This document shows positions 1,483-24,920 of a stretch of 64,000 nt of DNA, in pieces. Within the stretch, counting starts at the first letter, position 1; the number at the start of each line of letters is the position of its first letter. The notes under the pieces were generated by a model. It was not told the origin of the DNA, did not search any database, and saw only the letters and a list, made by a program, of their open reading frames with translations. Source of the stretch: Spirosoma sp. 48-14 (lineage in GTDB: Bacteria > Bacteroidota > Bacteroidia > Cytophagales > Spirosomataceae); contig NZ_MKUD01000010.1 of the NCBI RefSeq assembly GCF_001898575.1, positions 297,110-361,109 of the forward strand, read 5' to 3'. The position numbers were made by a program, and so were the translations under genes.

Positions 1483-2919
1483 TTACGCAGCTTTTCCCAG
1501 CGTTTTTAAGTCGGCAAGTGGGAATCGATAGCGTAGGGTAAGGCCAATATAAATCAGAGCACCTATCCCAATCTGGACGATGGTATTAGGCACGCTTACT
1601 GAGTCAAAAAATGATTTGTAAAGCGCAATGGCGCCTACCATCAGCAGGCAGAAGCCAACAGGCTTTGCAATTCCCTGTGCAAATTCTTTTAAGAATGGAC
1701 CAATCAGCGAATGCACAATCCGGAAATTAAGCAGCATGTTGGCCAGTGTGGCCAGCATAAAGGCAACTGCAATCCCCACAACGCCCCAGTATTGTGCGAG
1801 CACATACACGAGCGGAATTTTGATAAACAATGTGGCCACGTTGAGCTGGAAGAGCAGTTTGGGTTTTCCTTTTGAAAAGGCGAGGGTAAATAGCGGATTG
1901 CTCAGGAACGTGAAAATGCTGACAAAGACAAAAATGCGAATCAGTAGAATTGTAGGTTCCCAGCCCGGTCCGTAAAACAATGGAACCACACTGTCGGCGG
2001 TAATAAACAGACCGGCAAGCAAAGGCAGGTTTACGTAGCTGAGCAGATCCAGAATGGTGAGGTACGATTTTTTCAACTCATCGGTGTCGCCTTTTAACCG
2101 GGCCAGAATTGGGTATGCCACCTGAAGTACAATTGGATTGAGTCGGGCAATCGGGAAAACCGCCAGTTGAGAGGCCAGGGTATAATACCCAAGTGGCTTC
2201 ACGCCCAGCAATCCACCTACCAGGATATTATCCGAATTGGCCTGAATAAATCCAACGATGCCATCGCCCACATTATAGAGTCCGAACCGTAGATGGTCTT
2301 TGATGAGGGCCAGATTAAAGGTAAGCGTGGGCTTGAAATACTTGCTTCCAAAAATCATCTGAAGCACCGATTTGGCCGTTTGTTGAGCTAGTTGACCGAA
2401 GATAAGCGCCAGTTCTGCAAACCCGTTGTAGGCCAGTAATATGGTTGTGCCGGTGCCTACGATCGTGCCCGTCATGTCGATGGTGGCAACGGCCTTAAAT
2501 CGTAACTCTTTCTGAAGCAGAAACAGGTAAATCTGCCCTACGTACACGATAATAAAGTACAGCGACGATAGCTTGATGACGGCTTCCAGACGAGGCTCTT
2601 TGTAGTAAGCGGCTACCAGCGGCCAGCTAAAAAAAACGACAATGCCAATGACCAGTCCCAGAATTAGGTTCAGCAGGTAAATGGTGGACAGAACCTGCTG
2701 ATCATCTTCCTGTTTGTAAATGATGGAATTGGAAAAGCCCAGATTGGCAAAAATGTTAAAAAACGCAATCAGGAGGGTGCTGACGCTGACAATACCAAAT
2801 ACCGATGGTTCCAATAGTCGCGCCAGCACGGCCACCTGTCCAAACTGAAACAGAGTCGACAGAGCCGTGGAGATGCTCATCCACTTACCACCACTGATAG
2901 CCTGCTGCTTATGACTCAT
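1483..2919 (-). CDS. wzx: Wzx (MOP superfamily, WzxC-like) polysaccharide flippase
   Basis: 478 aa, many hydrophobic helices, N-terminal 'LARLLEPSVFGIVS...GFSNSIIYKQ' and 'GVKPLGYYTLA' typical of WzxC-like flippases. Confidence 0.9.
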   Translation of the reverse strand: MSHKQQAISGGKWMSISTALSTLFQFGQVAVLARLLEPSVFGIVSVSTLLIAFFNIFANLGFSNSIIYKQEDDQQVLSTIYLLNLILGLVIGIVVFFSWPLVAAYYKEPRLEAVIKLSSLYFIIVYVGQIYLFLLQKELRFKAVATIDMTGTIVGTGTTILLAYNGFAELALIFGQLAQQTAKSVLQMIFGSKYFKPTLTFNLALIKDHLRFGLYNVGDGIVGFIQANSDNILVGGLLGVKPLGYYTLASQLAVFPIARLNPIVLQVAYPILARLKGDTDELKKSYLTILDLLSYVNLPLLAGLFITADSVVPLFYGPGWEPTILLIRIFVFVSIFTFLSNPLFTLAFSKGKPKLLFQLNVATLFIKIPLVYVLAQYWGVVGIAVAFMLATLANMLLNFRIVHSLIGPFLKEFAQGIAKPVGFCLLMVGAIALYKSFFDSVSVPNTIVQIGIGALIYIGLTLRYRFPLADLKTLGKAA

Positions 2920-2924
2920 GTTGA

Positions 2925-5141
2925 CTATTGGTTAAGGAGCTTTGGGTTTTTAGAAGACGGTCCTGGAATTCCAGGACCGTTTTGCGTACGCGGTAACCCT
3001 TGTTTGATGTCGTTGAGACTTGGGGCATCCAGATTACTTTCCTCTACTTTATTCAGGGCTACCAGTACGGGTTGCCGGGCTGCTTTGAGGTAGAGTGCAA
3101 ATAGTTGCTTATCCCGACGGCCCCAAAGCGTATGGAGCGTTAGGATCATCAGCGAAACGGCACTTTTTCCGACCAGATGCAGGGGGATCGAACTACTAAC
3201 CAGTGGAGGTAGTTCCAGAATGATCTTATCGAAGCGGGTAACAATCATGGCATCATCGCCCGTCAGCAGATCTTCGGGCTCGCGGATGTTCATGAAGTTG
3301 GGGTGAAGTTCGTAGGGAAAGAAATGGATGCCTTCCTGTTCGAACTTCTGGTCTGTATTGGCCAATTGCGGATAATAGTAAGCAACCTGCTCACCCGATT
3401 CCGCATAGATACGGGCTAGCCCGTGGGCAAACCAGGTTTTCCCCTGCTTGCTGCGTGTGCTGAACAGGGTGATTATGGGTGGATACGATGGGTTGCTTCG
3501 CTGCTCAATGGTGATGTTGATGGCATTGGCCAGTTGTTCAAACATACTGGTAGCCGCCCGGCTTGCCTTTGAGTTGACCGCGAATTTTTTGACAGTTGGA
3601 AACAGGGCGATAATGGGACTGCCAAGGCGTTGTTCGGCCTGCGATAGTGAGTTGATCCGTTTATCGGCCCAGGCACGGAAAGCTGCCAACAGTAAGGCAA
3701 TGACCAGGCCCGCCCCAGCAGCAATAGCCATAAAGAGGAGCTTCTTGGGAGCCTGCGGAGTCATCGGGAAAACAGGTGGATCGAGTACCGATAAAGCCCC
3801 TTTCAGCGAAATGTCCTGGTTATGGGTTTGCGCTTCGTTCAGCGATTGAACCAGAGCAAGGTATTCTTTTTCCGCTACATCCAGATCTCGGGTTAGTTGC
3901 CGTTGTTCCGATTCCAGGGGGGGGTATGCCGACGATTCGGCCTGGTATTCATCCAGTCGTTTTTTAACGATATCCATCCGCGCAGACGCTCCTTCGTATT
4001 CCAGCACCTTGTCCAGCCATTCGTTCACCAGCTTTAGTTTAGGAACGGATTCGGTTGTATTATCAGCGGCAAAATAGTTCTGGGCAATCTGTTTCAATTC
4101 ATTCGAAAGCTGGTTGATTTTAGCCTGATGCGCGTCCAGTACGGATTGGGGCTGCCCATTGGTACGGGCGTTGATCAACTGCGATTCGGCGGCTGTTAGT
4201 TCGGCCTGTTTATCGGTCAGTTGGGTGTTTATCTTTAACAGATTACCTCCGCCCGACATCCGTTGGTTGATGGCGTCCATAGCAGCTTTGGCTGCTTTGG
4301 TCCCCATGACCTCTTTATTGTATTCATCGACCAGCGCTTCTCTAGTTGTGGAGCGAGTCTTTATTTCGTCTTCAAAATTGAGGACGTTATGGGCAACATT
4401 GAACGCTCTTAGCTTGGATTCGGCCTGATCAAGCTTTTGCTTAGCGGCTTTAACATTCGATTCATAGTAGCTCAATACAGGTGCTGTTTCGCCCCGTTTC
4501 AAGCTGGTGTATCGTTCGTTTAGTTCCGTTACGGCCATATCGAGGGTTTGCTGAGCAATGGCCGGATCATCGGCTTCGTACTCCATATCCAGCATGTCAC
4601 TGGCGGCCCGCCGGGATGCTTTGAGCTTTTTGCCAATGGTTTCGGCCGAGTAATCATTTCCTGATTTGGCGAGCAACGCTCGAACAGGGTTATCAGTTGA
4701 ACTCTGTGCGAGTCGGTCAAGCTGATTACGGGTTGAGTCCAGGTTCCCCGTTTTGGTCAGCGATTGGCGTAAACTGGCTGGGATCGTCTGCTGTAACTTC
4801 TGAAAGCTGGCTGCCGAAAGCTGGCGTTCTGTGGGTTTGGTAAGGTATAGGTGGTGAGTTAGCAGCCGAAGGCCAACCTGATACAGGGTCTGATTCGAAT
4901 TAAGCGTCGTTAGTACGTTGTCGAACGCATTGCTAATGCCTGAGTAATCGACCTGAAAACCTTCCCGCGCTGAATTCAATCGGTAGCCCGACGTAAATCC
5001 TGTATATAGCGTTGCCTTGGTTTTGTACGTTTTGACCTCATTCCGCATGAAGTAGTAAACGGCACCGGCTCCCAGGCAGGGAAATACAATAAACCAAATG
5101 AGATGCTGCTTCAAAAGCCGCCCAAGTTCCTGGAAAGTCAT
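2925..5141 (-). CDS. Wzc/GumC-like polysaccharide co-polymerase with a degenerate C-terminal BY-kinase-like domain
   Basis: N-terminal TM, long coiled-coil periplasmic region, second TM (LLFMAIAAGAGLVIALLL), P-loop-like STRSKQGKT, ELPP in place of Walker B DTPP. Confidence 0.85.
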   Translation of the reverse strand: MTFQELGRLLKQHLIWFIVFPCLGAGAVYYFMRNEVKTYKTKATLYTGFTSGYRLNSAREGFQVDYSGISNAFDNVLTTLNSNQTLYQVGLRLLTHHLYLTKPTERQLSAASFQKLQQTIPASLRQSLTKTGNLDSTRNQLDRLAQSSTDNPVRALLAKSGNDYSAETIGKKLKASRRAASDMLDMEYEADDPAIAQQTLDMAVTELNERYTSLKRGETAPVLSYYESNVKAAKQKLDQAESKLRAFNVAHNVLNFEDEIKTRSTTREALVDEYNKEVMGTKAAKAAMDAINQRMSGGGNLLKINTQLTDKQAELTAAESQLINARTNGQPQSVLDAHQAKINQLSNELKQIAQNYFAADNTTESVPKLKLVNEWLDKVLEYEGASARMDIVKKRLDEYQAESSAYPPLESEQRQLTRDLDVAEKEYLALVQSLNEAQTHNQDISLKGALSVLDPPVFPMTPQAPKKLLFMAIAAGAGLVIALLLAAFRAWADKRINSLSQAEQRLGSPIIALFPTVKKFAVNSKASRAATSMFEQLANAINITIEQRSNPSYPPIITLFSTRSKQGKTWFAHGLARIYAESGEQVAYYYPQLANTDQKFEQEGIHFFPYELHPNFMNIREPEDLLTGDDAMIVTRFDKIILELPPLVSSSIPLHLVGKSAVSLMILTLHTLWGRRDKQLFALYLKAARQPVLVALNKVEESNLDAPSLNDIKQGLPRTQNGPGIPGPSSKNPKLLNQ

Positions 5142-5144
5142 ATC

Positions 5145-5972
5145 TTACACACGTTTCAGTTGACGAATGGGCACTCCAACGAACAGTTCAAGTGCATAAA
5201 TAGCTTTGATGAACGAGGTCTTGGCCTGTTCGACCGTCGCTCGGGTTTCGGCATATCGGTTGCTGTTGAACGCGTGCGCTTCAGGTGCAATTTTTCCTTT
5301 CTGAAGCTCCACTTCGGCAATCCGGTAAGCCGCCAGCGATGCCTGATCGTCTCGCAGGCGAATCTGTAAAATCTTTTGTGCGAGGAGCAGATCCTGGTAG
5401 AGGTTAAACAGGTCGCGTCGTAACTGAATTTCGGCGAGCCGCTTTCGTTCGATCGTAGCGTCGTAGTTGGCTTTAGCTAATCGAATCTGCTGAGGGCGGC
5501 CGAAAAGCTCATGAATACTGAAGGCCACATTGACCCCGTACCGATAGCCATTCGAAATCTGCGCCAGTTGATCGTTTGCATTGGTGCCAGTCGAAAGGAT
5601 AGCCTGATTCCCTGATGAATAGTTGGCATACCCCGTCAGATTTTGTAGAATCTGTACTTTTGATAAATTGTAGGATGCCTGCGTTCCAGCTGCAACCGCG
5701 GCTTCAAATTTGATGGTGGGAGAATAGGCCAGCGCTAGCTTGAACATATCCTCAAATGGGATAAGCTGAACTGAAATGTCCTGGTTGAAATCGAAAGTCA
5801 GACTGTCGGCTGTAACCGCAGCTGATGGAGTAGGGGCGGGTTGTGTTCCTGAGGGCGTGGCTGCTGGATTCCCCTGACCATACCCGGCAGTATGTACAAG
5901 CACCCCCAAAATCACCGTACTGGCAAGGGAGAAGAGAGGCTGCTTTAATTGATATAATGTGCTTAATCTCAT
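5145..5972 (-). CDS. short TolC/OEP-family outer-membrane protein (single repeat)
   Basis: Signal peptide, then helical pattern 'LFKLALAYSP...LFNLYQDLLLAQKIL...ELQKGKI...LELFVG' typical of OEP proteins. Only 275 aa. Confidence 0.75.
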   Translation of the reverse strand: MRLSTLYQLKQPLFSLASTVILGVLVHTAGYGQGNPAATPSGTQPAPTPSAAVTADSLTFDFNQDISVQLIPFEDMFKLALAYSPTIKFEAAVAAGTQASYNLSKVQILQNLTGYANYSSGNQAILSTGTNANDQLAQISNGYRYGVNVAFSIHELFGRPQQIRLAKANYDATIERKRLAEIQLRRDLFNLYQDLLLAQKILQIRLRDDQASLAAYRIAEVELQKGKIAPEAHAFNSNRYAETRATVEQAKTSFIKAIYALELFVGVPIRQLKRV

Positions 5973-6018
5973 GCTGTTGACGAATCCTTGAAAATCTGTG
6001 GATAAAGTTGTTGGGTTA

Positions 6019-7218
6019 TCATGCCGGTTGTTCCTGTCGCCAGGCTTTGGGCATCTGACGGATCACCCCTTCAAATTCTCGCGCCCGCTCTGGCCAGGCG
6101 TTACGCTGAGCCATGGCTACCCGTTGCTGTACGCGTAAAGGATTGGTATCGGCCAGGGCATGTCGAATGGCCTGAGCAAACTGTTCGGGCGTTTCGGCTA
6201 GTTCGATTACCCCATCGAAATCGTCCAGAATTGAGAAGGGTGTCGACACAACCGACAAACCAGCTGCCAGGTATTCGTTGATTTTCAGCGGGTAAATGGT
6301 ATACGTGTGTCGATTGCAAACGAACGGGATGATGCCAACACTAAGCCGGGCCAGTAAAGGTGGCAGATCGACAGGTTGATGAGGGGGAATAAACGTTACG
6401 TTTGGGTAGTGCCCCAGTCGTTGGATTAACAGAGGCTCGTGTACTTCACCGATAAACTGAAAATCAATATCCGGCATGGTACGGGCGCAATAGTCCATGA
6501 TGTCGATATTGACCCGGTTATCAGCTGAACCCAGGTAGCCTACAACTGGCTTTTCGGGTGGTTGCTGCTGAGCCAGTAGCCTGGCCTGGTTGAACAGGTC
6601 GAAATTGGCACCGTTCTTTACACAAAACGTTTGTGGCTGAAGCGTCGACTTATCCTGACGCAGGGTCTCGGATGTAGTCACTACGGCATCCACCCGCCGG
6701 ATATAGGCCTCCTCATAGCGGGTGCCGTGCTTGCTCATCCACTCACCAGCCACCGAAATTTCATCAAAACAGTAATATAACGTAGCGCATTCATTGAGCT
6801 TTCCCAGCATCGGCAATCCAATAACCGGGTTATAGGCATTGATCACCAGTGGTCGATGCATGCCCAGTTTTTTCAGTACTGTTCGAAGCTGCCCCACCAG
6901 TCGATTGATATTCCATTGCAGGACCCGATCGTGGGCGCTATTATCCATCCAGTTGATTGGAAGGATGATTGGGGGCGACCAAACGTACAAATCTTCGCCA
7001 CCCTGATTATCAATTTTGTTCAGTGGGTTGCCAAACAACAGCTCCTTCGTCGATACTTCCTTACGACCCGTGACCACATCTTTAATCGTATACAGGTAGT
7101 CGACAAACAGCACCCGATGCCGGGCCGACAACTCCGTCATGAGCTGGACTACGGCCTTCTGAAAATCGCCTTTCCAGGAGGTTTGCGAAATACAGACAAT
7201 GCTATCAAACTGTTTCAT
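6019..7218 (-). CDS. glycosyltransferase, GT4-like (GT-B)
   Basis: YYCFDE, KNGANFDLF, VVGYLGS and PLKINEYLAAGLSVVST motifs. Confidence 0.88.
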   Translation of the reverse strand: MKQFDSIVCISQTSWKGDFQKAVVQLMTELSARHRVLFVDYLYTIKDVVTGRKEVSTKELLFGNPLNKIDNQGGEDLYVWSPPIILPINWMDNSAHDRVLQWNINRLVGQLRTVLKKLGMHRPLVINAYNPVIGLPMLGKLNECATLYYCFDEISVAGEWMSKHGTRYEEAYIRRVDAVVTTSETLRQDKSTLQPQTFCVKNGANFDLFNQARLLAQQQPPEKPVVGYLGSADNRVNIDIMDYCARTMPDIDFQFIGEVHEPLLIQRLGHYPNVTFIPPHQPVDLPPLLARLSVGIIPFVCNRHTYTIYPLKINEYLAAGLSVVSTPFSILDDFDGVIELAETPEQFAQAIRHALADTNPLRVQQRVAMAQRNAWPERAREFEGVIRQMPKAWRQEQPA

Positions 7219-8710
7219 AGGTGTCGGGCGTGGGGTTTGAATACAGTGTTGAATCGGGGTTAGGACTTGACTCGGAAGCCGGTGTATCCCATCGATAGCA
7301 GGTTGTAAACAGGATCGTCGTCATAAAAATCATGGTGTCGGTCGGGAACTGCCCCATTACAGGATTGGAGTATCCCATTACCGCAATGCCGACAAACTCC
7401 GCCAGGAAAGCATACATTACTTTCACCAGCCAGGGGTCTTTTAGTTGCCAGACTTGATAGACACCGATAAGCACTAAGCCAACAACCATCATCAGGTAGA
7501 TAGTAAGTCCAACCCGGCCGGTTTCGATCCAGAGTTCGACATACCAGCTATCTGGTGGTGTTTGGGCCGCCCAGTGCCAGGGAGAAAACCGTGCCCCCAT
7601 GTCGGTCGATGTGCCAATTCCAGCACCAAATGGATACTCGGCCAGGTATCGTTTGAGCTTTTCCTGATTTTGCAGACGAAGAATAAACGAAGGGTCGTTC
7701 ATGGGTGTCAGCGCGGAACGCATCCGTTGCACCTGATAATTCGAACTGCCAACACTAGTATAGAGCAGAAGCAGCACCAGAGGCACCGCCAGCGTGGCTC
7801 CAATAATCAGCTTGGGAAAATCTCGTTTGAGTAGCAGATAAAATGGAAACCCGGCCAGCATGACGAACAGTGCACTGCGTGTACCCGATACAGCATAGCC
7901 CCAGAAGTAGGTGAGCGCCAACGCCAAACATATCAGTTTGGGTATCAGCTTCTTCTCTTCGAAACTGTAGATCACCGCTACCAGTGTTGCTCCGGCCATT
8001 TCGCCCCCAAACTGAGCAGCATCGGAATAGAACGAAAAGCTACGAAGCTGTCCGAACAATACGTGAGTTAAGGCATTGTTCCCCTGACTAAGCCAGTTTT
8101 GCTCGGCTGGTTCCAGACCAAGATACTGTTGTTTAAAGCCCCAAAAGGCTGCCAGAAACGACCATCCTAGCCACGAATACACCAGAATTTTGATGTCGCG
8201 GATGGTAATGGGCAAAACCAGTACGGCCAGACCTGCCATGAACCAGTGCATCGAAAAAGGCCGGACATGAAAAAACCAGGCCGGACGGTACGGGGCTTCA
8301 GGATTGAGTAATTCAATGAGGGTGTAGGTAAACCAGATGGCAATTAGCGCGAATGTAGGGCTGCGTAAGCGGTGCCAGTCCATTCGCTGGCCGTTTATGA
8401 ATAAACTTAAGAGTGTCAGGGCCAGTACCCCGTCAATTAATAATCCAATAGGAATAGAAACATTAATGAACCGTGACCAGCCAATGAGAAAACTAAGTTG
8501 TAAATACAGAAATAGGCCGAATTTGGGCTCTTTGAACACCATAACAACCGTTAACAAGGCGATTGGTGCAATCAAGGCCATCACTCCGCCAACTGGGCCC
8601 ATCTTACTGATCAGATACCCCACACCAACCGTATATAGCCCGCCCAGGAGGCTATAAAGCCATACTTGGCCAGATGTAGGACTGTTCAGTGAAAATACCG
8701 ACTGCGCCAT
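7205..8710 (-). CDS. Wzy polymerase / O-antigen-ligase-like membrane protein
   Basis: About 11-12 hydrophobic helices, RSFSFYSDA, SGTRSA, PFGAGIG and DSWYVELWIETG motifs; located in the EPS operon. Confidence 0.85.
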   Translation of the reverse strand: MAQSVFSLNSPTSGQVWLYSLLGGLYTVGVGYLISKMGPVGGVMALIAPIALLTVVMVFKEPKFGLFLYLQLSFLIGWSRFINVSIPIGLLIDGVLALTLLSLFINGQRMDWHRLRSPTFALIAIWFTYTLIELLNPEAPYRPAWFFHVRPFSMHWFMAGLAVLVLPITIRDIKILVYSWLGWSFLAAFWGFKQQYLGLEPAEQNWLSQGNNALTHVLFGQLRSFSFYSDAAQFGGEMAGATLVAVIYSFEEKKLIPKLICLALALTYFWGYAVSGTRSALFVMLAGFPFYLLLKRDFPKLIIGATLAVPLVLLLLYTSVGSSNYQVQRMRSALTPMNDPSFILRLQNQEKLKRYLAEYPFGAGIGTSTDMGARFSPWHWAAQTPPDSWYVELWIETGRVGLTIYLMMVVGLVLIGVYQVWQLKDPWLVKVMYAFLAEFVGIAVMGYSNPVMGQFPTDTMIFMTTILFTTCYRWDTPASESSPNPDSTLYSNPTPDTYETV

Positions 8711-8735
8711 AATGAGTGAGTAACTACCAGATCAA

Positions 8736-9929
8736 TTATGTAAGTGCGTCTACGGCATTGGCCCTACGCACTTTCTCCCAGGTTCCAGATTGATTACCCC
8801 GCAAATAGCGAACCAAACCTGCAAGTGCACAGATATTCATAAACGTAAAATAGAAAGGAACGAAAGCAGCTTTTAAGCGTATTTGACGTTTTTCCAACGT
8901 ATAGCCTAGCCAGGCGGCACCGTAAAATAAAATCTGGCCGATAAATAGCCATCCCCATAAGGAGCTCCATCCGTCCTGAATGACCAGTCCGGCGTTCAGT
9001 AGAAAGATGAGGGGCAAGCAGAGGGGCGTAACGGCCCAACGCATCACCCGGTGGGAAACATACTCGAATGTGAGCACACCGTAGCGAAACGGATTGAGGA
9101 GATGTTTCAGCCACACAATTGATTGAAAGCCACCAGCAGCAATACGTATTTTTCGTTTCTGTTCGTCGATGATTGAGAAAGATGGCCGTTCGAGGGCATA
9201 CGCATCGGGCTCATAGGCAACCCGATAACCCCGCCCGGCGATAAGGAGCGAAATCATAAAATCGTCCAGAATGGTATTCGGCGATACGGGTTCGTAGAGC
9301 TCCGTACGAACGGCAAATAGCTCGCCCGCGGCCCCTACGATGGTGTGGAGTTCGGCATCCCAGCGTTTCAACTGCGACTCATATTTCCAGTAAATACCTT
9401 CGCCCGAACCCGCAGCCGATTCGCTATCAGTAGTCTGAATCCGTTTTTCACCCGCCACGGCGCCTACTTTCGGGTCTCGAAAATGCCGAACAATATTCTG
9501 AACCGCATCCAGATTCAACTGCGTGTTGGCGTCGGTGAAGATTACAATGGGCGTTTTTACCTGCTGCATGGCCATATTCATAGCTGCTACTTTACCCCGA
9601 CGTTCGGTGCCGCCCAAAATGCCTATGGTATCGCCGTACGTTGATCGCAGGTAGTCGTCCGAACCATCAGTTGAACCCTCAGTGACGAACAGAAATTGGA
9701 TATGCTCCCGTGGGTACGACTGCCCCAGCGAGTTGGCTACCTTGGCAGGCAGGCAATCGAGTTCATTGTAGGCGGGTACAATCAGCGTTACATCCGGCAT
9801 ATACTCTTCCGAAAGGCTGGCAACGGGTGGGCGTTGTGGGCGAAGCCGAATCAGTAGCCAGACCAGTAACCCATAACCCAGGTATGTATAGACCACGAGC
9901 CCGATACAAATCAATATCAATAGTTCCAT
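8736..9929 (-). CDS. GT2 family glycosyltransferase (IcaA/PgaC-like)
   Basis: IVPAYNE, FTDAN, TILDDF, QKRKIR motifs with N- and C-terminal TM helices. Confidence 0.9.
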   Translation of the reverse strand: MELLILICIGLVVYTYLGYGLLVWLLIRLRPQRPPVASLSEEYMPDVTLIVPAYNELDCLPAKVANSLGQSYPREHIQFLFVTEGSTDGSDDYLRSTYGDTIGILGGTERRGKVAAMNMAMQQVKTPIVIFTDANTQLNLDAVQNIVRHFRDPKVGAVAGEKRIQTTDSESAAGSGEGIYWKYESQLKRWDAELHTIVGAAGELFAVRTELYEPVSPNTILDDFMISLLIAGRGYRVAYEPDAYALERPSFSIIDEQKRKIRIAAGGFQSIVWLKHLLNPFRYGVLTFEYVSHRVMRWAVTPLCLPLIFLLNAGLVIQDGWSSLWGWLFIGQILFYGAAWLGYTLEKRQIRLKAAFVPFYFTFMNICALAGLVRYLRGNQSGTWEKVRRANAVDALT

Positions 9930-9942
9930 TCAAATATTATAA

Positions 9943-10893
9943 TTAGCCCGCAACGACGGCTGGCAACCGTGCGGGTGCAGTTGGACTTGGCGTATGTGTA
10001 AAATTCCAGAGAACGGCATCCTTTATCGCTTTGAGGTACGAAGGCTGCCATCGTAACGTATATTGGGCTAGGGCTTTAGGAAGGGCAATACAGAAAAAAT
10101 ACATATAGAACACCAGCAACGGAAACCCGTCGACGTTCCGGCGCATGAACCAAAGCCGATTTCGGGTATGGTAATACACCTTCATTGGATTCATCTTGCC
10201 GACACTCATCGACTCGCGATGGTAAATCAGGGCTTTAGGCTGATAGTAAATGGTAAAACCAGCCCGTCGGATACGTGCCGACCAGTCCAGTTCTTCATAA
10301 TACAGGAAAAAGCTGTCGTCGAGTGAGCCCGCTTGTTCCAGCACCGACCGACTGACGAGCATAGCGGCTCCATGAGCAAACCAGGTGGCGCCGGGCTTGT
10401 CGTGCTGCCCCTGATCGGGTTCCATAAGCCCTATAGCCCACGTACGTCCGGTATATTCATTCAATGGATGATAACCGGCATACTGGATGATGTTGGGCTG
10501 GTCGTAATAACGAATCTTTGGGCAGACAACCCCAACGGCTGGGTTCTCCGCAAAGGGCGCCAGTAGCTGTTCCAGTAAATCAGGTGTAACGATGGTATCG
10601 TTGTTGAGCAGGAAGTAATACTCGCCCTGAGCATATCGAATCCCCAGATTATTGCCACCCGAAAATCCAAGATTATCGGGACTGTCGATGTATGTTACAT
10701 GGGGATAGTTGCCCTGCGCAATCCGTTCGGCAAGATCATCCTTCGATCCATTATTGACGACAATGATTTCATAGCGCGGATAGGTCAGCGCCCGAGTCGA
10801 TTCCAACAGATCGCAGGTTACTGCCGCCTGATTGTAATTGATTGTTATCAGCGAAATCAGCGGCTTTACTTCTACACATTCTCCTTCTGCCAT
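9943..10893 (-). CDS. GT2 family glycosyltransferase
   Basis: ITINYN, NLGFSGGNN, LLNND, FFLYYEELDW, HRESMS motifs. Confidence 0.9.
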   Translation of the reverse strand: MAEGECVEVKPLISLITINYNQAAVTCDLLESTRALTYPRYEIIVVNNGSKDDLAERIAQGNYPHVTYIDSPDNLGFSGGNNLGIRYAQGEYYFLLNNDTIVTPDLLEQLLAPFAENPAVGVVCPKIRYYDQPNIIQYAGYHPLNEYTGRTWAIGLMEPDQGQHDKPGATWFAHGAAMLVSRSVLEQAGSLDDSFFLYYEELDWSARIRRAGFTIYYQPKALIYHRESMSVGKMNPMKVYYHTRNRLWFMRRNVDGFPLLVFYMYFFCIALPKALAQYTLRWQPSYLKAIKDAVLWNFTHTPSPTAPARLPAVVAG

Positions 10894-12038
10894 ACCGCTT
10901 TTAAGGTTCTCAGCAAAATAATTAAGTCTGTACGAAAGGAGTGTCGTTTGGCATACAGTACATCCAACTGGATACGTTCCAGATCCGATACCTTCGACTT
11001 TCCCCGTTTGGTCACCTGCCAGAGTCCCGTCAGTCCGGCTGGTGCCGCAAAGCGACGGGCATAGCCAATATTGGTCAGTTTTTCGGCTTCGTATAGCGGA
11101 AGGGGACGATTGCCAACAAAGGACATATCGCCCTTCAGGATATTAAACAACTGCGGTAACTCATCAATACTCGTGTTTCGAAGGATTTTACCCAGTTTGG
11201 TCACACGGGGGTCTTCCTTAAACTTGCTAAACATGGCTTTCGCCTTCTGTTCGCGATGGTACTGAAGTTCGCAAATCTGCTTTTGGTCCAGATAGAGCGG
11301 GCGCTGACAGGGGCTATTGGCGAGTTTGCATTCATCGCATAGTTCATCGGCTGGTTTTTCCTCCACCTTATTGTACATGTTCTGCGACGCCATGCCCGCC
11401 AGTAACTTATCTGCTCCCGTACTCATGGTGCGAAACTTGTACATATCAAATATCCTGAAACCCATACCTACCCGTTTCGAACTGTAAAAAACGGGGCCTT
11501 TGGAGTCAAGCTTGACGAGCAACGCTACAATAAGTAACAGCGGAGAAATTAGGGTTAGGATGGTAAACGAAAGCAAAATATCAAAAATGCGTTTGCCAAT
11601 TGGCATTCGCACCGATACCGGCTTATGCACAACCCTACCATTTCGCTGATAGTCCCTTTTTTGAATGAGGTAATTCAACCGAATTTTCAGAGCAGCCTCT
11701 GAATAGTTCTGCGGAAATGCATCAATCACAAACCCATGATAGGGAGCGGCAGTCAGGTCGATCTTTTCCTGATCGGTAAGTAAAATAATGGGAATTTTAG
11801 TCCGGCTTTGTTTCGCCTGATAGGCGTTCATGAAGCCGCGCGTATTTAAATCGTCGTTATAGAGAATCAGGTCAACGGGCGCTTTATCATCCAGATAAGA
11901 AATGGCTGACCAGCCATCGGCCACACCAATGACCTCAATAGGTGAAGGGAATGCTCGCTGAAACGATTTAATGCGTCGGTCATCGTTATCAACATAGAGC
12001 ACCCGGAAGGGTTGCGTATTGTCACTTACAGCCTTCAT
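10872..12038 (-). CDS. priming phosphoglycosyl transferase (Bac_transf/WcaJ-like) with N-terminal receiver-like domain
   Basis: KRIFDI, YKFRTM, DPRVTKLGKILRNTSIDELPQLFNILKGDMSFVGNRP and GLTGLWQV motifs; N-terminal VLYVDND...DLILY...PIILLT receiver pattern. Confidence 0.92.
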   Translation of the reverse strand: MKAVSDNTQPFRVLYVDNDDRRIKSFQRAFPSPIEVIGVADGWSAISYLDDKAPVDLILYNDDLNTRGFMNAYQAKQSRTKIPIILLTDQEKIDLTAAPYHGFVIDAFPQNYSEAALKIRLNYLIQKRDYQRNGRVVHKPVSVRMPIGKRIFDILLSFTILTLISPLLLIVALLVKLDSKGPVFYSSKRVGMGFRIFDMYKFRTMSTGADKLLAGMASQNMYNKVEEKPADELCDECKLANSPCQRPLYLDQKQICELQYHREQKAKAMFSKFKEDPRVTKLGKILRNTSIDELPQLFNILKGDMSFVGNRPLPLYEAEKLTNIGYARRFAAPAGLTGLWQVTKRGKSKVSDLERIQLDVLYAKRHSFRTDLIILLRTLKAVWQKENV

Positions 12039-12062
12039 GATTTGTTGTCAGACAGGTTTATA

Positions 12063-12473
12063 TCAATCGGCATTTGGTTGTCCTACATTGCTGGCTTCTG
12101 TCCGACGTAAGACCGTCATAATCTTGGTTTTTACCTCCATTGGATTGAAGGGCTTGATGATATAATCGTCAGCTCCTAATTTGAGGCAGGCAATTCGGGT
12201 ATCGCTGTCGGCGTAAGTTGAGAGAATAATGATGGGAAGCTTTCTAAAAACCGGGCTTGCCCTGAGCATGCTTATCAGGTTTTTGCCATCCATATGAGGC
12301 ATTTGTATATCCGACAGGATGATATCGACGGGGTGCCCTTCCTCCAGCCATGCCATACCTTCCATCCCATTTTCGGTAGTAGTTACTTCAAAATCATCTT
12401 TTAATGTTTGTCGCAGTACTTTCCGAATAAACGAGTCATCTTCGATCACTAAAACGTGGTATATTTTTTTCAT
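12063..12473 (-). CDS. single-domain response regulator (receiver)
   Basis: VLVIEDD, DIILSDIQMP, IIILST, DDYIIKPF: all canonical phospho-receiver residues are present. Confidence 0.92.
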   Translation of the reverse strand: MKKIYHVLVIEDDSFIRKVLRQTLKDDFEVTTTENGMEGMAWLEEGHPVDIILSDIQMPHMDGKNLISMLRASPVFRKLPIIILSTYADSDTRIACLKLGADDYIIKPFNPMEVKTKIMTVLRRTEASNVGQPNAD

Positions 12474-12923
12474 ATGAGCACAAGGCTTGCCAGTGGAATT
12501 AAAAGATAAGGATAGATTGGTTTGTAAAGATAATTGTTATGGTTATGAAATCTCGATATAGTAAACAAAAAGGAGGCTTAAGCTTTCTGTTTTTTGACAC
12601 AAAAAACAATAAATTAATTTTACGGTAGTTAATATTAATTATGGTCTAATGTCAATTGGTTAAATAATTCATGTGTAAGTGCGTAATCTTTCACTTTTAT
12701 ATACATTATATACATATAAAGTGATTCTATATAGTTAATATGTATAGATTGAAGGTAAAGTTTTTTTAATTCTTTACCTGATCTGTGCTGATACCGGCAA
12801 GTGGAATTATCTTTAGTATATGGGTAAGTTGCCTGAAAGGTCTAAAATTTGGAAAGACTGGAATAGGTTTTTGGGGCTATGCAGGCACGTTGAATCAGGC
12901 TCCGGTTTCAGGTTATGTATTAA

Positions 12924-14078
12924 TTACACATAAACTGCCGCGTACTTTTTGCCGGGGAGCGATCGGACAAACCCCCGAAATTCAAGGTTCAGGAGCAGGG
13001 AGGCCAATCGGCCCATCGGGAGTTGACTTTTCCAGCTTAGTTCATCAATGTGAATAGCCTGTGCCTGGCGCAACAGGGCAAGAATTTGACTCTCTTCGTC
13101 GGTAATATCCAGAGGTAATGATGAAACGCCTGCTTTAGTAAAGGACTGCTCAGAAAGAGAATTTTGGGGTTGATCCCAGTTGAGGGCTTCAATAAGGTCT
13201 TTGGGGTTGGTATAAATCTGGGCTTTATTTTCCCGGATCAGTTTATTACAACCTGCTGAAAAAGTCTGGTTCAGTTGACCCGGTACCGCAAATACCTCAC
13301 GGTGATAATTGTTTGCATACTCAGCCGTAATCAAAGCGCCACCTTTGGCAGCCGCTTCTACCACAACGACGGCGTCGCTCAGTCCGGCAATGATCCGGTT
13401 ACGGGCCGGGAATAGATGAGCATCGGGCTTTGTACCGGGCGGACTTTCCGTAAGCAAACCACCTTGTACCAGCATTTCCTGGGCGGTTTTCTGATGCACA
13501 TTCGGGTAAATGATGTCGATACCGCTGGCCACTACACCAATTGTTGGTAAGCCATGTAACAGGCTGGCGCGGTGAGCAGCAATATCGATTCCATACGCCA
13601 GGCCACTAATCACATTGATGCCGTAAGGGATCAGGGCTTCGATCATGTCGTTGGTAATCCGTCGACCGTATTCGGTAGCCTGCCGGGTTCCCACCAAACC
13701 GATGGTTCGGGGAGGGTTCAGATTACCATTCCCTTGCATATAAAGAAGAGCAGGGGCGTCGTAAAGCGTTTTGAGCCGGGCGGGATACGCTTTATCGGTA
13801 TAAAATAGGGCAGAAGCACCGAGCTTCTCGAGTCGGTTCATTACTCGTTCGGCTTCAGTAAGGGCATCCGGTTTGCGGATAGATCGGGCGGTTACCTCGC
13901 CAATGCCCGGTATTTTCAGCAATCGGGCGAGAGGAGCATGAAAAACGTCGCTGGCGGAACCACAGTAGCTGATCAGTTGTCGAATAATAATACTGCCAAC
14001 GCCAGGAACAAGGGTAAGGGCAATTTGATATTGGGTGTCGTTGGGCACAGATTCAAGGGCTTGTTTGGCCACAAACAT
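12924..14078 (-). CDS. dprA: DNA-processing protein DprA
   Basis: IGLVGTR, VISGLAYGIDIAAH, FPARNRIIAGLS, GALITA, VFAVPG motifs and a C-terminal winged helix. Confidence 0.96.
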   Translation of the reverse strand: MFVAKQALESVPNDTQYQIALTLVPGVGSIIIRQLISYCGSASDVFHAPLARLLKIPGIGEVTARSIRKPDALTEAERVMNRLEKLGASALFYTDKAYPARLKTLYDAPALLYMQGNGNLNPPRTIGLVGTRQATEYGRRITNDMIEALIPYGINVISGLAYGIDIAAHRASLLHGLPTIGVVASGIDIIYPNVHQKTAQEMLVQGGLLTESPPGTKPDAHLFPARNRIIAGLSDAVVVVEAAAKGGALITAEYANNYHREVFAVPGQLNQTFSAGCNKLIRENKAQIYTNPKDLIEALNWDQPQNSLSEQSFTKAGVSSLPLDITDEESQILALLRQAQAIHIDELSWKSQLPMGRLASLLLNLEFRGFVRSLPGKKYAAVYV

Positions 14079-22931: not shown

Positions 22932-24920
22932 ATGAAGCCTCTTTTCCTGCTCATTGGCTTGTCAATTAGTTCGTGTCCAGCGCTTGCCCAGATAAACCTG
23001 GCCGATAGTCTACAAAACCTGTTGGCCAGGCCCATACCCGATACCAGTAAAGTGTTGGCTCTTGATCGGTTAAGTCGGGCCTGGATGTATGCAAAGCCGT
23101 TTGAAGCCATGCAATGTGCCAGAAAGGGCTTACAGATAGCACAACGTATAGGATATGCCCGAGGGGAGGCCCGTATTCAGAACCGGATTGGTACTATTTT
23201 TCGGCTTACCGGTAATTTCGATCAGGCACTAACTGCTCATCTGACGTCTATAAACATTGCAGAAGCCAATCAGGATAAGGATGCACTGGCTCGAACGTAT
23301 AACAATCTCGGTAACCTTTACATCGAGCAGAACAACTGGACGCAGGCAATTCGCTATTTGCAAAAAGCACTTGCACTGGCTGAAGAGTTGAAAGACAGTG
23401 ATTTAAAGCAAATTGTGCTGACTAACCTGGGGTATGATTACATTTCGCAGAGCCGTTTGGACTCTGCGCTGAAGTATACAACCATAGCGTATCAGGAAGC
23501 CGTAAACCTCAAAACGAGCGATCGACAGGCCGAACTGATGAATCTGGGAAATGTGTATGGCCAGTTAGGTAAATACAAAGAGGCCCTGCAATATTTCCGA
23601 TTCAGTGTCGAAAACGGAAAAACGTCAAAAAATGCCCGTGTATTAAGCCAGACCTATTATGAAATGGCCGATGTCTTTAACAAAATGGGCCAGAAGGACT
23701 CGACTATTTTCTATGCTAACCAATCGTTGACAGTCGCACAGCGGAGCGCATTGCAGCTTAATATCGTCAAAGCCAGTTCATTACTGACCGATATATACGA
23801 GTCAACGGATCCGCGACAGGCAATCGCTTATTTAAAAATTGCTACCGCTGCCAAAGACAGTCTGGTTAACACGGAAAAAATTAAAAACTTTCAGAACATC
23901 GAGTTTAATGAAAAAATGAGGCACGAGGATGAGCAGCGGCTGGAAGAAAAATATCGGACCCGGATTACCATTTACCTGCTCGTAGGGGCCATTGGAACTT
24001 TCATCGCTATTGCGTTTATACTCTACCGTAACAACCGAATCAAGCAAAAAGCCAATGTGATCCTTAAAAAGCAACGGGACGAAATCAGTGTGCAACGGCA
24101 AAAAGCAGAGTTGGCGCTGACCGAGTTGAAAGCTACACAGAATCAACTCATTCAGCGCGAGAAACTGGCCAGCTTAGGCGAACTGACAGCAGGTATAGCC
24201 CATGAAATTCAGAATCCGCTGAATTTTGTTACTAATTTCTCTGAGGTGAGTACAGAGCTTATTGATGAGTTGGGCCAAGGGCCGTTTCAGCAACTCAATG
24301 AAGTCGATAAGCAATACGTAGACGAAATTATAGGTGATTTACGGGTGAACCTCGAAAAAATCAATTACCATGGAAAGCGAGCCGATGCCATTGTTCGGGG
24401 GATGCTGGAACATTCCCGAACGTCGACGGGCGAGAAAGCACCTATTCAGCTGAATAAACTAACCGAAGAACACCTGAATCTGGCTTTTCAGGGGTATAGG
24501 AGCAAAGTCAAAGAGTTTACCTGTCAGCTCGAAAGGGATTTTGGCGATACTGTAGGGGGCATTACGATCGTTGCTCAGGATGTAGGTCGTGTACTATTGA
24601 ACTTGTTTAGCAATGCATTCTATGCCATGAATCAAAAGCGTACCCTTTCTACTGCCGAATACCAACCCGTATTATGGGTGAGTACTCGACGGCAAAATGG
24701 GTACGTTGAAATCCGGGTGAAGGACAATGGCGCGGGTATTCCAGAGGGGATAAAAGCGAAAATCTTTCATCCTTTTTTTACGTCCAAGCCTACAGGAGAA
24801 GGAACCGGACTGGGTTTGAGCCTAAGTTTCGATATAATTACCAAAGGGCATAGCGGTGAACTAACCGTTGATAGCCGGGAGGGAGAAGGGACGGAGTTTA
24901 TCATCAGGCTTCCCGGTTAG
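22932..24920 (+). CDS. TPR-repeat sensor histidine kinase
   Basis: Signal peptide, TPR repeats, one TM, GIAHEIQNPLNF H-box, N-box, DNGAGI, FFTSK, GTGLGLS. Confidence 0.93.
   Translation: MKPLFLLIGLSISSCPALAQINLADSLQNLLARPIPDTSKVLALDRLSRAWMYAKPFEAMQCARKGLQIAQRIGYARGEARIQNRIGTIFRLTGNFDQALTAHLTSINIAEANQDKDALARTYNNLGNLYIEQNNWTQAIRYLQKALALAEELKDSDLKQIVLTNLGYDYISQSRLDSALKYTTIAYQEAVNLKTSDRQAELMNLGNVYGQLGKYKEALQYFRFSVENGKTSKNARVLSQTYYEMADVFNKMGQKDSTIFYANQSLTVAQRSALQLNIVKASSLLTDIYESTDPRQAIAYLKIATAAKDSLVNTEKIKNFQNIEFNEKMRHEDEQRLEEKYRTRITIYLLVGAIGTFIAIAFILYRNNRIKQKANVILKKQRDEISVQRQKAELALTELKATQNQLIQREKLASLGELTAGIAHEIQNPLNFVTNFSEVSTELIDELGQGPFQQLNEVDKQYVDEIIGDLRVNLEKINYHGKRADAIVRGMLEHSRTSTGEKAPIQLNKLTEEHLNLAFQGYRSKVKEFTCQLERDFGDTVGGITIVAQDVGRVLLNLFSNAFYAMNQKRTLSTAEYQPVLWVSTRRQNGYVEIRVKDNGAGIPEGIKAKIFHPFFTSKPTGEGTGLGLSLSFDIITKGHSGELTVDSREGEGTEFIIRLPG

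Follow-up and report, generated by a model that had tools for sequence, protein, structure and literature searches.

A conserved receiver–phosphoglycosyl transferase gene pair with a candidate pseudo-receiver adaptor at the head of a Spirosoma exopolysaccharide operon

We analyzed a 64,000-nt stretch of contig NZ_MKUD01000010.1 from Spirosoma sp. 48-14 (hereafter the window), in which a Wzx/Wzy-type exopolysaccharide (EPS) operon is headed by two adjacent genes. The first encodes a stand-alone receiver protein (REC), and the second encodes a phosphoglycosyl transferase (PGT) whose N-terminal part resembles a receiver. The operon host belongs to Spirosoma, and PGT was 97% identical to its homologue in S. 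aerolatum and 94% identical to that in S. panaciterrae. The first-pass annotation of positions 11640–12473, which correspond to REC and residues 1–133 of PGT, had proposed that phosphorylated REC binds the receiver-like domain and controls the enzyme. Our analysis indicated that the REC–PGT pair is a real and widespread module, and sequence comparison, structural models, and analogy with characterized systems made the regulatory mechanism plausible.

REC matched the receiver profile PF00072 with an E-value of 9e-29 and 100.3 bits (curated cut-off, 30.2). Its catalytic quintet was complete (D12, D13, D55, S85, and K107, the last within K107-P108-F109; codons checked), which confirmed the earlier description of the first gene as a stand-alone receiver with all canonical residues. 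These residues, including the K107-P108-F109 motif, were kept in 42–45 of the 45 orthologues from the family Spirosomataceae. D12, D55, S85, and K107-P108-F109 were also kept in all 26 orthologues from other families of the order Cytophagales, among which position 13 was variable (Glu in 13, Asp in 6, Asn in 5, Tyr in 1, and Val in 1). The structures nearest to the REC half of the fused model described below were OmpR/PhoB-type receiver domains, with template modelling (TM) scores of ~0.92. Judged by its residues, REC is a fully canonical single-domain response regulator that is predicted to be phosphorylatable. In three lineages of the family, the acceptor was Glu instead of Asp55, with S85 and K107 retained, and these orthologues may represent a phosphorylation-independent "locked" variant.

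The N-terminal domain of PGT gave a marginal match to PF00072 as a single sequence (E 0.021, 15 bits), and BLASTP against the neighboring REC gave an E-value of 0.06; a profile built from 10 orthologues of the domain matched solved receiver domains with an E-value of 4e-7. AlphaFold predicted residues 11–132 with a predicted local distance difference test score (pLDDT) of ~90 as a fold of the (beta-alpha)5 type, with the order beta1-alpha1-beta2-alpha2-beta3-alpha3-beta4-coil-beta5-alpha5. Helix 4 was missing in this model, residues 88–103 being coil, and the linker to the catalytic domain (residues 133–146) was of low confidence. Structural searches with Foldseek superposed ~120 residues of the domain on many receivers, with TM scores of 0.73–0.79 and a root mean square deviation (rmsd) of ~3 Å. 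In one MAFFT alignment, unpaired rows of the PGT domain aligned with the canonical receiver half, which is a sign of homology. Alignment and structure prediction of both receivers, a check proposed with the first-pass annotation, thus showed the second domain to be receiver-like, with a similarity well beyond chance. An origin of the domain by duplication of the partner REC was unsupported, as the similarity between the two did not exceed their similarity to receivers in general that are unrelated to the pair.

We then compared the catalytic positions of the two receivers. HMMER and MAFFT both paired Asn61 of PGT with the acceptor Asp, and in the models Asn61 closed beta3 at the position matching Asp55 at the end of beta3 in REC. 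In the hidden Markov model (HMM) alignment, Q110-N111-Y112 lay opposite K-P-F, and no Lys was found under any register. Both substitutions had been read correctly in the first-pass annotation, namely Asn at the phospho-Asp position and QNY in place of KPF. Two of the five catalytic positions were left in the domain, the second residue of the acidic pair (DD2, D19) and the Thr (T88); the first acidic position (DD1) held Asn or varied, and the "xMP" loop, three residues that follow the acceptor, was deleted. In having a receiver fold and missing the acceptor Asp together with other catalytic residues, the domain corresponds to the pseudo-receiver, or aspartate-less receiver, class (PMC12632262; PMC4395418). 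With Asn at the acceptor, no Lys, half of a metal pocket, and no helix 4, the N-terminal domain of PGT is predicted to be a receiver fold that has lost the capacity for phosphorylation.

This state was maintained among relatives. Across 112 full-length PGT orthologues, with identities down to 47%, Asn occupied position 61 in 96 and Ser in 11, none had Asp there, and the Lys position was occupied by Gln or a variable hydrophobic residue. D56, D106, F108, R120, and Y123 were invariant or nearly so, and the beta5-alpha5 segment was the best conserved part of the domain. Because residue 61 was Asn or Ser in 107 of the 112 orthologues and never Asp, and because these near-invariant residues were kept across the 112 orthologues, the pseudo-receiver state appears to be selected rather than a product of decay. 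The mean pairwise distance was 1.76 for the pseudo-receiver, 0.66 for REC, and 0.44 for the catalytic domain, so that REC is more strongly constrained than the pseudo-receiver. In some genomes, the pseudo-receiver PGT gene was split into two open reading frames (ORFs) by an apparent frameshift at approximately residues 134–190 (L003:1501-2669 and L009/L019, the latter from Spirosoma sp. KNUC1025, L019:6001-7169); these represent either pseudogenes or sequencing errors. A search from the N-terminal domain of P0255, a receiver-PGT with a Glu acceptor, found only a small family.

The remainder of PGT matched PF02397 with an E-value of 5.5e-58 and 195.9 bits, and Foldseek matched the catalytic domain to PglC (8e37; TMt 0.80). 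The catalytic Asp292-Glu293 dyad and the S165-P166 of the re-entrant helix were all invariant or nearly so, and the alignment of PGT to WbaP and PglC spanned the SxDELPQL motif. The match to WbaP was limited to the catalytic part. The four-helix membrane bundle and DUF of large monotopic PGTs (monoPGTs) were absent, residues 1–148 forming the soluble receiver fold and the catalytic domain beginning at K149. These features identify PGT as the predicted priming enzyme of the pathway, which would put the first sugar-phosphate on undecaprenyl phosphate. The Bac_transf catalytic domain also carried an insert of ~55 aa with four Cys residues in the arrangement C-x2-C-x6-C-x11-C (11271–11339, residues 234–256), which were invariant in the 112 orthologues; Cys-rich inserts were also present in relatives with short N-termini from other families.

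To define the distribution of the gene pair, we examined genomes of the family, the order, and the phylum. A pseudo-receiver PGT was found in 74 of 151 sampled family genomes and in 23 of 51 genera. In each of the 48 family loci inspected initially, the REC gene directly preceded PGT in the same orientation, and inspection of the 16-kb context in representatives of 20 genera showed REC–PGT adjacency in all 20, with the rest of the locus variable. Counting the REC stop codon, the interval to the PGT start was 21–52 nt in the family loci measured, and some of the genes overlapped. REC orthologues scored 90–295 bits, versus ~50 bits or less for unrelated receivers at the same loci. A search with REC alone retrieved 89 of the 151 family genomes and 41 of 201 genomes of the order. 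Of 25 loci from other families of Cytophagales, 24 had a small monoPGT gene directly after REC, as did all 10 loci from the rest of Bacteroidota at which REC scored at least 92 bits; four weaker REC matches (80–89 bits) elsewhere in Bacteroidota had no adjoining transferase. Outside the family, the N-terminal extension of PGT was either 129–178 aa long and receiver-derived or 9–72 aa long without a receiver fold. In the long form from other families, the acceptor position was Asp, Glu, Ala, Asn, or His, with no Lys and no intact acidic pair.

Next, we focused on kinases that could supply REC. The first-pass annotation had noted that this portion of the operon contains no kinase. This holds for the window, in which the gene upstream of the operon is dprA and the kinase nearest to the pair lies on the opposite strand (Table 1), although the statement is valid in cis only, since orthologues of a kinase cassette occur ~33 kb upstream on the same contig. 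The cassette was recognized from Larkinella, where the gene order is FIST, hybrid kinase (HisKA-HATPase-REC), Hpt, REC, and PGT, and where it would constitute a complete His-Asp-His-Asp relay ending at REC. In a second genus, the same 507-aa hybrid kinase was located directly upstream of the pair. The FIST, kinase, and Hpt genes in the present genome were unambiguously orthologous to those of Larkinella (541, 783, and 85 bits, respectively; next-best kinase, 332 bits), and the FIST gene was the only FIST-domain gene of the genome. We consider this cassette the best candidate relay for REC. A different arrangement, CHASE3/GAF hybrid histidine kinase, CheR, CheB, and REC-HK (REC-HisKA-HATPase), directly preceded REC–PGT at four loci in three genera; it was carried by S. 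arboris and S. flavum and in two further genera. No chemoreceptor gene was found inside this cassette, and the present genome contained no orthologue of the S. arboris REC-HK, the best match being 34% identical. A paralogous pair near the FIST cassette comprised a receiver (169-aa ORF; PF00072, 72 bits) and a 408-aa transferase (PGT2). The N-terminal domain of PGT2 was not recognized by Pfam and kept the aligned Asp ("LIIAD") and the DD pair, with Asn in place of Lys.

The other features of the locus are collected in Table 1. No terminator-like site was found in the REC–PGT spacer. The presumed regulatory region upstream of REC carries TATA-rich near-palindromes (tatatagaatcactttatatgtatataatgtatata); a scan of this gap found no exact Bacteroidetes TAnnTTTG box, and scans upstream of REC with the sigma-70 and Bacteroidetes -7 box consensus sequences were uninformative. 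The OEP-like protein adjoins the Wzc-like gene at the position expected for an OPX/Wza exporter, and the OEP–Wzc order was also seen downstream of the REC–PGT pair in other genera (loci L062 and L065). For the Wzc-like protein, Pfam returned GNVR only, plus a weak CbiA/ParA-type match (E 0.0096), and no convincing tyrosine-kinase domain.

Table 1. Positions of the gene pair, the EPS operon, and related genes. Positions without a prefix are those of the window.
Feature	Position	Strand	Description
REC	12063-12473	minus	Receiver gene; 136-aa single-domain response regulator; PF00072
REC catalytic residues	D12/D13 12435-12440; D55 12309-12311; S85 12219-12221; K107 12153-12155	minus	D55, acceptor
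REC–PGT spacer	12039-12062	minus	24 nt; both ORFs in one frame; TGA-YKPV-TGA-QQI
PGT	10872-12038	minus	Transferase gene; 388 aa; pseudo-receiver plus PglC-type catalytic domain
Pseudo-receiver domain	11595-12038	minus	PGT residues 1-148; aspartate-less receiver
Receiver fold in PGT	11643-12008		PGT residues 11-132; Asn61 11856-11858; Q110-N111-Y112 11703-11711
Catalytic domain	10872-11594	minus	PGT residues 149-388; PglC-type small monotopic PGT catalytic domain
Catalytic dyad	11160-11165		Asp292-Glu293
Gap between dprA and REC	12474-12923	minus	450 bp, non-coding, AT-rich; presumed operon promoter and regulatory region
dprA	12924-14078	minus	Gene upstream of operon
Remaining EPS operon	1483-10893	minus	Co-directional, Wzx/Wzy-type; gene content downstream of REC–PGT differs by genus
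GT2	9943-10893	minus	EPS operon
GT2	8736-9929	minus	EPS operon
Wzy-like	7205-8710	minus	EPS operon
GT1	6019-7218	minus	EPS operon
OEP-like	5145-5972	minus	275 aa; single OEP repeat (PF02321)
Wzc-like	2925-5141	minus	EPS operon; GNVR domain
Wzx flippase	1483-2919	minus	EPS operon
Histidine kinase	22932-24920	plus	TPR-HisKA-HATPase_c, 662 aa; nearest kinase in the window to the pair, 10.5 kb off; nothing ties it to the pair
FIST–hybrid histidine kinase–Hpt	G000:C10:272544-275636		~33 kb upstream of REC, outside the window
Paralogous receiver and PGT2	G000:C10:267175-269088 (L077:2576-4489)	minus	Between FIST cassette and contig start, 40 kb upstream of the pair
CHASE3/GAF hybrid kinase cassette	L014:53-5339, L055:3328-9321
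Glu-acceptor REC orthologues	L036:1950-2333, L043:2073-2456, L047:2060-2440		Two other genera

To obtain structural information regarding a possible contact between the two proteins, we folded a read-through chain consisting of REC, nine intervening residues, and the pseudo-receiver, with the stop codons rendered as Gly, as a covalent stand-in for the complex. Such a chain could be folded because both ORFs are in one frame. The alignment used for folding contained 16 paired in-frame read-throughs from other loci and 29 receiver-only rows. AlphaFold returned a predicted TM score (pTM) of 0.82 and a mean pLDDT of 85.6 (five models, 83.9–85.6), with a disordered 23-residue linker at residues 130–152. 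The full enzyme, folded by the same pipeline, gave a pTM of 0.48, with two well-folded domains that remained undocked and are joined by a shorter flexible linker. The difference between the two values argues for a specific complex of REC with the pseudo-receiver, insofar as models of this kind can. In a Foldseek search with the fused model, PleD ranked first over both domains in order, with a TMq of 0.41 and an rmsd of 14–17 Å.

In the literature, we found neither the REC–PGT pair nor any PGT bearing a pseudo-receiver described. The monoPGT similarity-network survey by O'Toole, Imperiali and Allen (PNAS, 2021) reportedly recorded a fusion of a receiver-like domain with Bac_transf; the accessible part of that survey records the fusion only, and neither its aspartate-less state nor the constant neighboring receiver gene. 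The closest functional parallel is found in Myxococcus xanthus, in which phosphorylated EpsW acts as a binding partner and activator of the PGT EpsZ (Schwabe et al., mBio 2025; PMC12802240). Published late in 2025, this is the first response regulator described as acting directly on a priming enzyme, and its authors regarded as an open question whether receiver-fused small monoPGTs behave similarly (PMC12802240). Both systems couple a single-domain response regulator to the initiating monoPGT of Wzx/Wzy-dependent EPS synthesis, with control, predicted in the case of Spirosoma, at the first committed step and without a DNA-binding output. However, EpsZ is a large monoPGT with a four-helix membrane bundle and a cytoplasmic DUF, has no receiver-like domain, and lacks the dimerization beta-hairpin; its proposed mechanism is promoted dimerization, and the kinase is the CheA-type DifE. 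In Spirosoma, by contrast, the pseudo-receiver sits at the N-terminus of a small PglC-type enzyme, REC and PGT are direct neighbors in a synteny shared across Bacteroidota, and the linked relays found in relatives are of the hybrid-kinase/Hpt type.

The architecture has a parallel in Caulobacter PleD (receiver D1, pseudo-receiver D2, and GGDEF; PDB IDs: 1w25 and 2v0n), where a canonical receiver likewise works through an aspartate-less receiver fused to an enzyme (PMC12632262). The acceptor position of PleD D2 is likewise Asn (VDLVIVN), and D2 was among the best matches of the pseudo-receiver profile (E 6e-7). PleD combines both domains in a single polypeptide, and its output, a diguanylate cyclase, is activated by dimerization, whereas REC is a separate polypeptide and the predicted geometry differs (TM 0.41, rmsd ~16 Å). 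Pairs of receivers and pseudo-receivers are known from the BldM-WhiI heteromer and the proposed CmrR-CmrT heteromer (PMC12632262), and aspartate-less receivers have been described more generally (PMC4395418). In those pairs, too, a non-phosphorylatable protein of receiver fold works with the product of a nearby gene, a receiver that is canonical or nearly so, but they are DNA-binding regulators, whereas the Spirosoma output is a membrane enzyme.

Taken together, sequence, models, and analogy led us to favor, on balance, the reading that REC and PGT form a conserved two-gene signaling-enzyme module heading the operon, in which phosphorylated REC gates PGT post-translationally with the pseudo-receiver as an adaptor. 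REC would be phosphorylated by an unlinked phosphorelay, for which the hybrid kinase and Hpt of the FIST cassette are the best candidates. Phosphorylated REC would then dock on PGT via the pseudo-receiver, possibly touching the catalytic domain as well, and this docking would gate the committed first step of repeat-unit synthesis. By analogy with EpsW and EpsZ, activation of PGT is the more likely effect of REC, rather than inhibition. This reading is favored by the strict adjacency of REC and PGT at all three taxonomic levels (family, order, and phylum) amid variable surroundings, and by the phosphorelays of relatives, which end in an Hpt gene directly upstream of REC. The broader version, an ancient Bacteroidota-wide switch in which the terminal regulator of a relay docks on a small monoPGT, in many lineages via an aspartate-less adaptor that amounts to a PleD-like stem split over two proteins, seems to us a serious possibility that falls a little short of an even chance.

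Several observations weigh against this interpretation. An orthologous REC also precedes PGTs that have just the 9–72-aa extension and hence no pseudo-receiver, at 8 of 24 loci from other Cytophagales families and 3 of 10 loci elsewhere in Bacteroidota. Such pairs imply that the coupling of REC to the enzyme is independent of that domain, and that the pairing is older or more general than the pseudo-receiver. No kinase was found in cis with the pair in this genome. Glu at the REC acceptor in three lineages implies that phosphorylation is not always needed and suggests, from these residues, that the partnership is independent of phosphorylation in some lineages. The evidence for docking comes from one AlphaFold run, in which the two domains were covalently linked and the alignment had 16 paired rows; AlphaFold may favor receiver–receiver dimers generally, and the D1/D2 packing of PleD was not reproduced. 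Mirror-tree analysis with partial Mantel correlation gave a partial r of 0.30 between REC and the pseudo-receiver, which is weak and confounded by shared phylogeny. The regulatory proposal of the first-pass annotation therefore stands in part: its anatomy was right, and its logic fits the adjacency, the Hpt relays, the pTM of 0.82, and the EpsW/EpsZ precedent, whereas the coupling does not depend on the pseudo-receiver, a domain missing from roughly one in three related pairs of other families.

These observations bear most directly on the main rival, in which REC regulates PGT through its catalytic domain or membrane-proximal face and the pseudo-receiver serves homodimerization, glycosyltransferase scaffolding, or another ligand. 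The pairs without a pseudo-receiver keep this rival alive, and REC distances correlated better with those of the catalytic domain than with those of the pseudo-receiver (partial r, 0.68 vs 0.30). EpsW also contacts the catalytic domain of EpsZ in addition to the DUF (PMC12802240). On the other side, the linked model of REC and the pseudo-receiver docks confidently, and beta5-alpha5 is the most conserved surface of the pseudo-receiver. We regard a mechanism exclusively of this type as unlikely but worth keeping in mind, and REC may dock partly or wholly on the catalytic domain. Single-domain receivers are often phosphate sinks or connectors, a point that, together with the lack of a kinase in cis, would suit mere co-expression, with REC a phosphate sink or acting on the Wzc-like protein or a transcription factor and the pseudo-receiver working independently. 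Such a relationship is improbable given that the REC–PGT pair is the sole invariant part of otherwise variable loci across the phylum, that the two genes are 0–50 nt apart or overlapping, and that linked relays are ordered Hpt, REC, PGT.

Two further alternatives concern the pseudo-receiver itself. A decaying relic of a functional receiver fusion, with no present role, could be imagined from its rate of evolution, ~4 times that of the catalytic domain, and from its loss in several lineages, but such a domain would hardly be expected to fold confidently (pLDDT ~90) with invariant surface residues (R120, Y123, D106, and F108) and with Asn61 maintained over the orthologues from 23 genera; we consider this very improbable. 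We give still less credence to the domain being a working receiver that is phosphorylated at Asp62 or Asp56, possibly via the relay of REC. Acidic residues are indeed frequent there (Asp or Glu at position 62 in 105 of the 112 orthologues and D56 in 110), and the N-terminal domain of PGT2 in this genome retains the aligned Asp. Against it, the domain has no Lys, its DD1 position holds Asn or varies, the "xMP" loop is deleted, and the range of acceptor residues in other families leaves no conserved pocket.

Surface polysaccharides influence how Bacteroidota form biofilms, glide, and associate with hosts or plants, and the post-transcriptional control of bacterial Wzx/Wzy-dependent polysaccharide synthesis is largely unknown. 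The REC–PGT pair offers a compact, testable system, in which a regulator of 136 aa is paired with an enzyme of 388 aa that carries its own dead receiver, with defined candidate kinases and with natural variants in the form of pairs lacking the pseudo-receiver and of Glu-acceptor RECs. If phosphorylated REC does gate PGT through its pseudo-receiver, the mechanism of EpsW and EpsZ would extend from one large monoPGT to the monomeric small monoPGTs, and pseudo-receivers would gain a concrete role as enzyme docking modules, among the few mechanistic roles known for them in bacteria.

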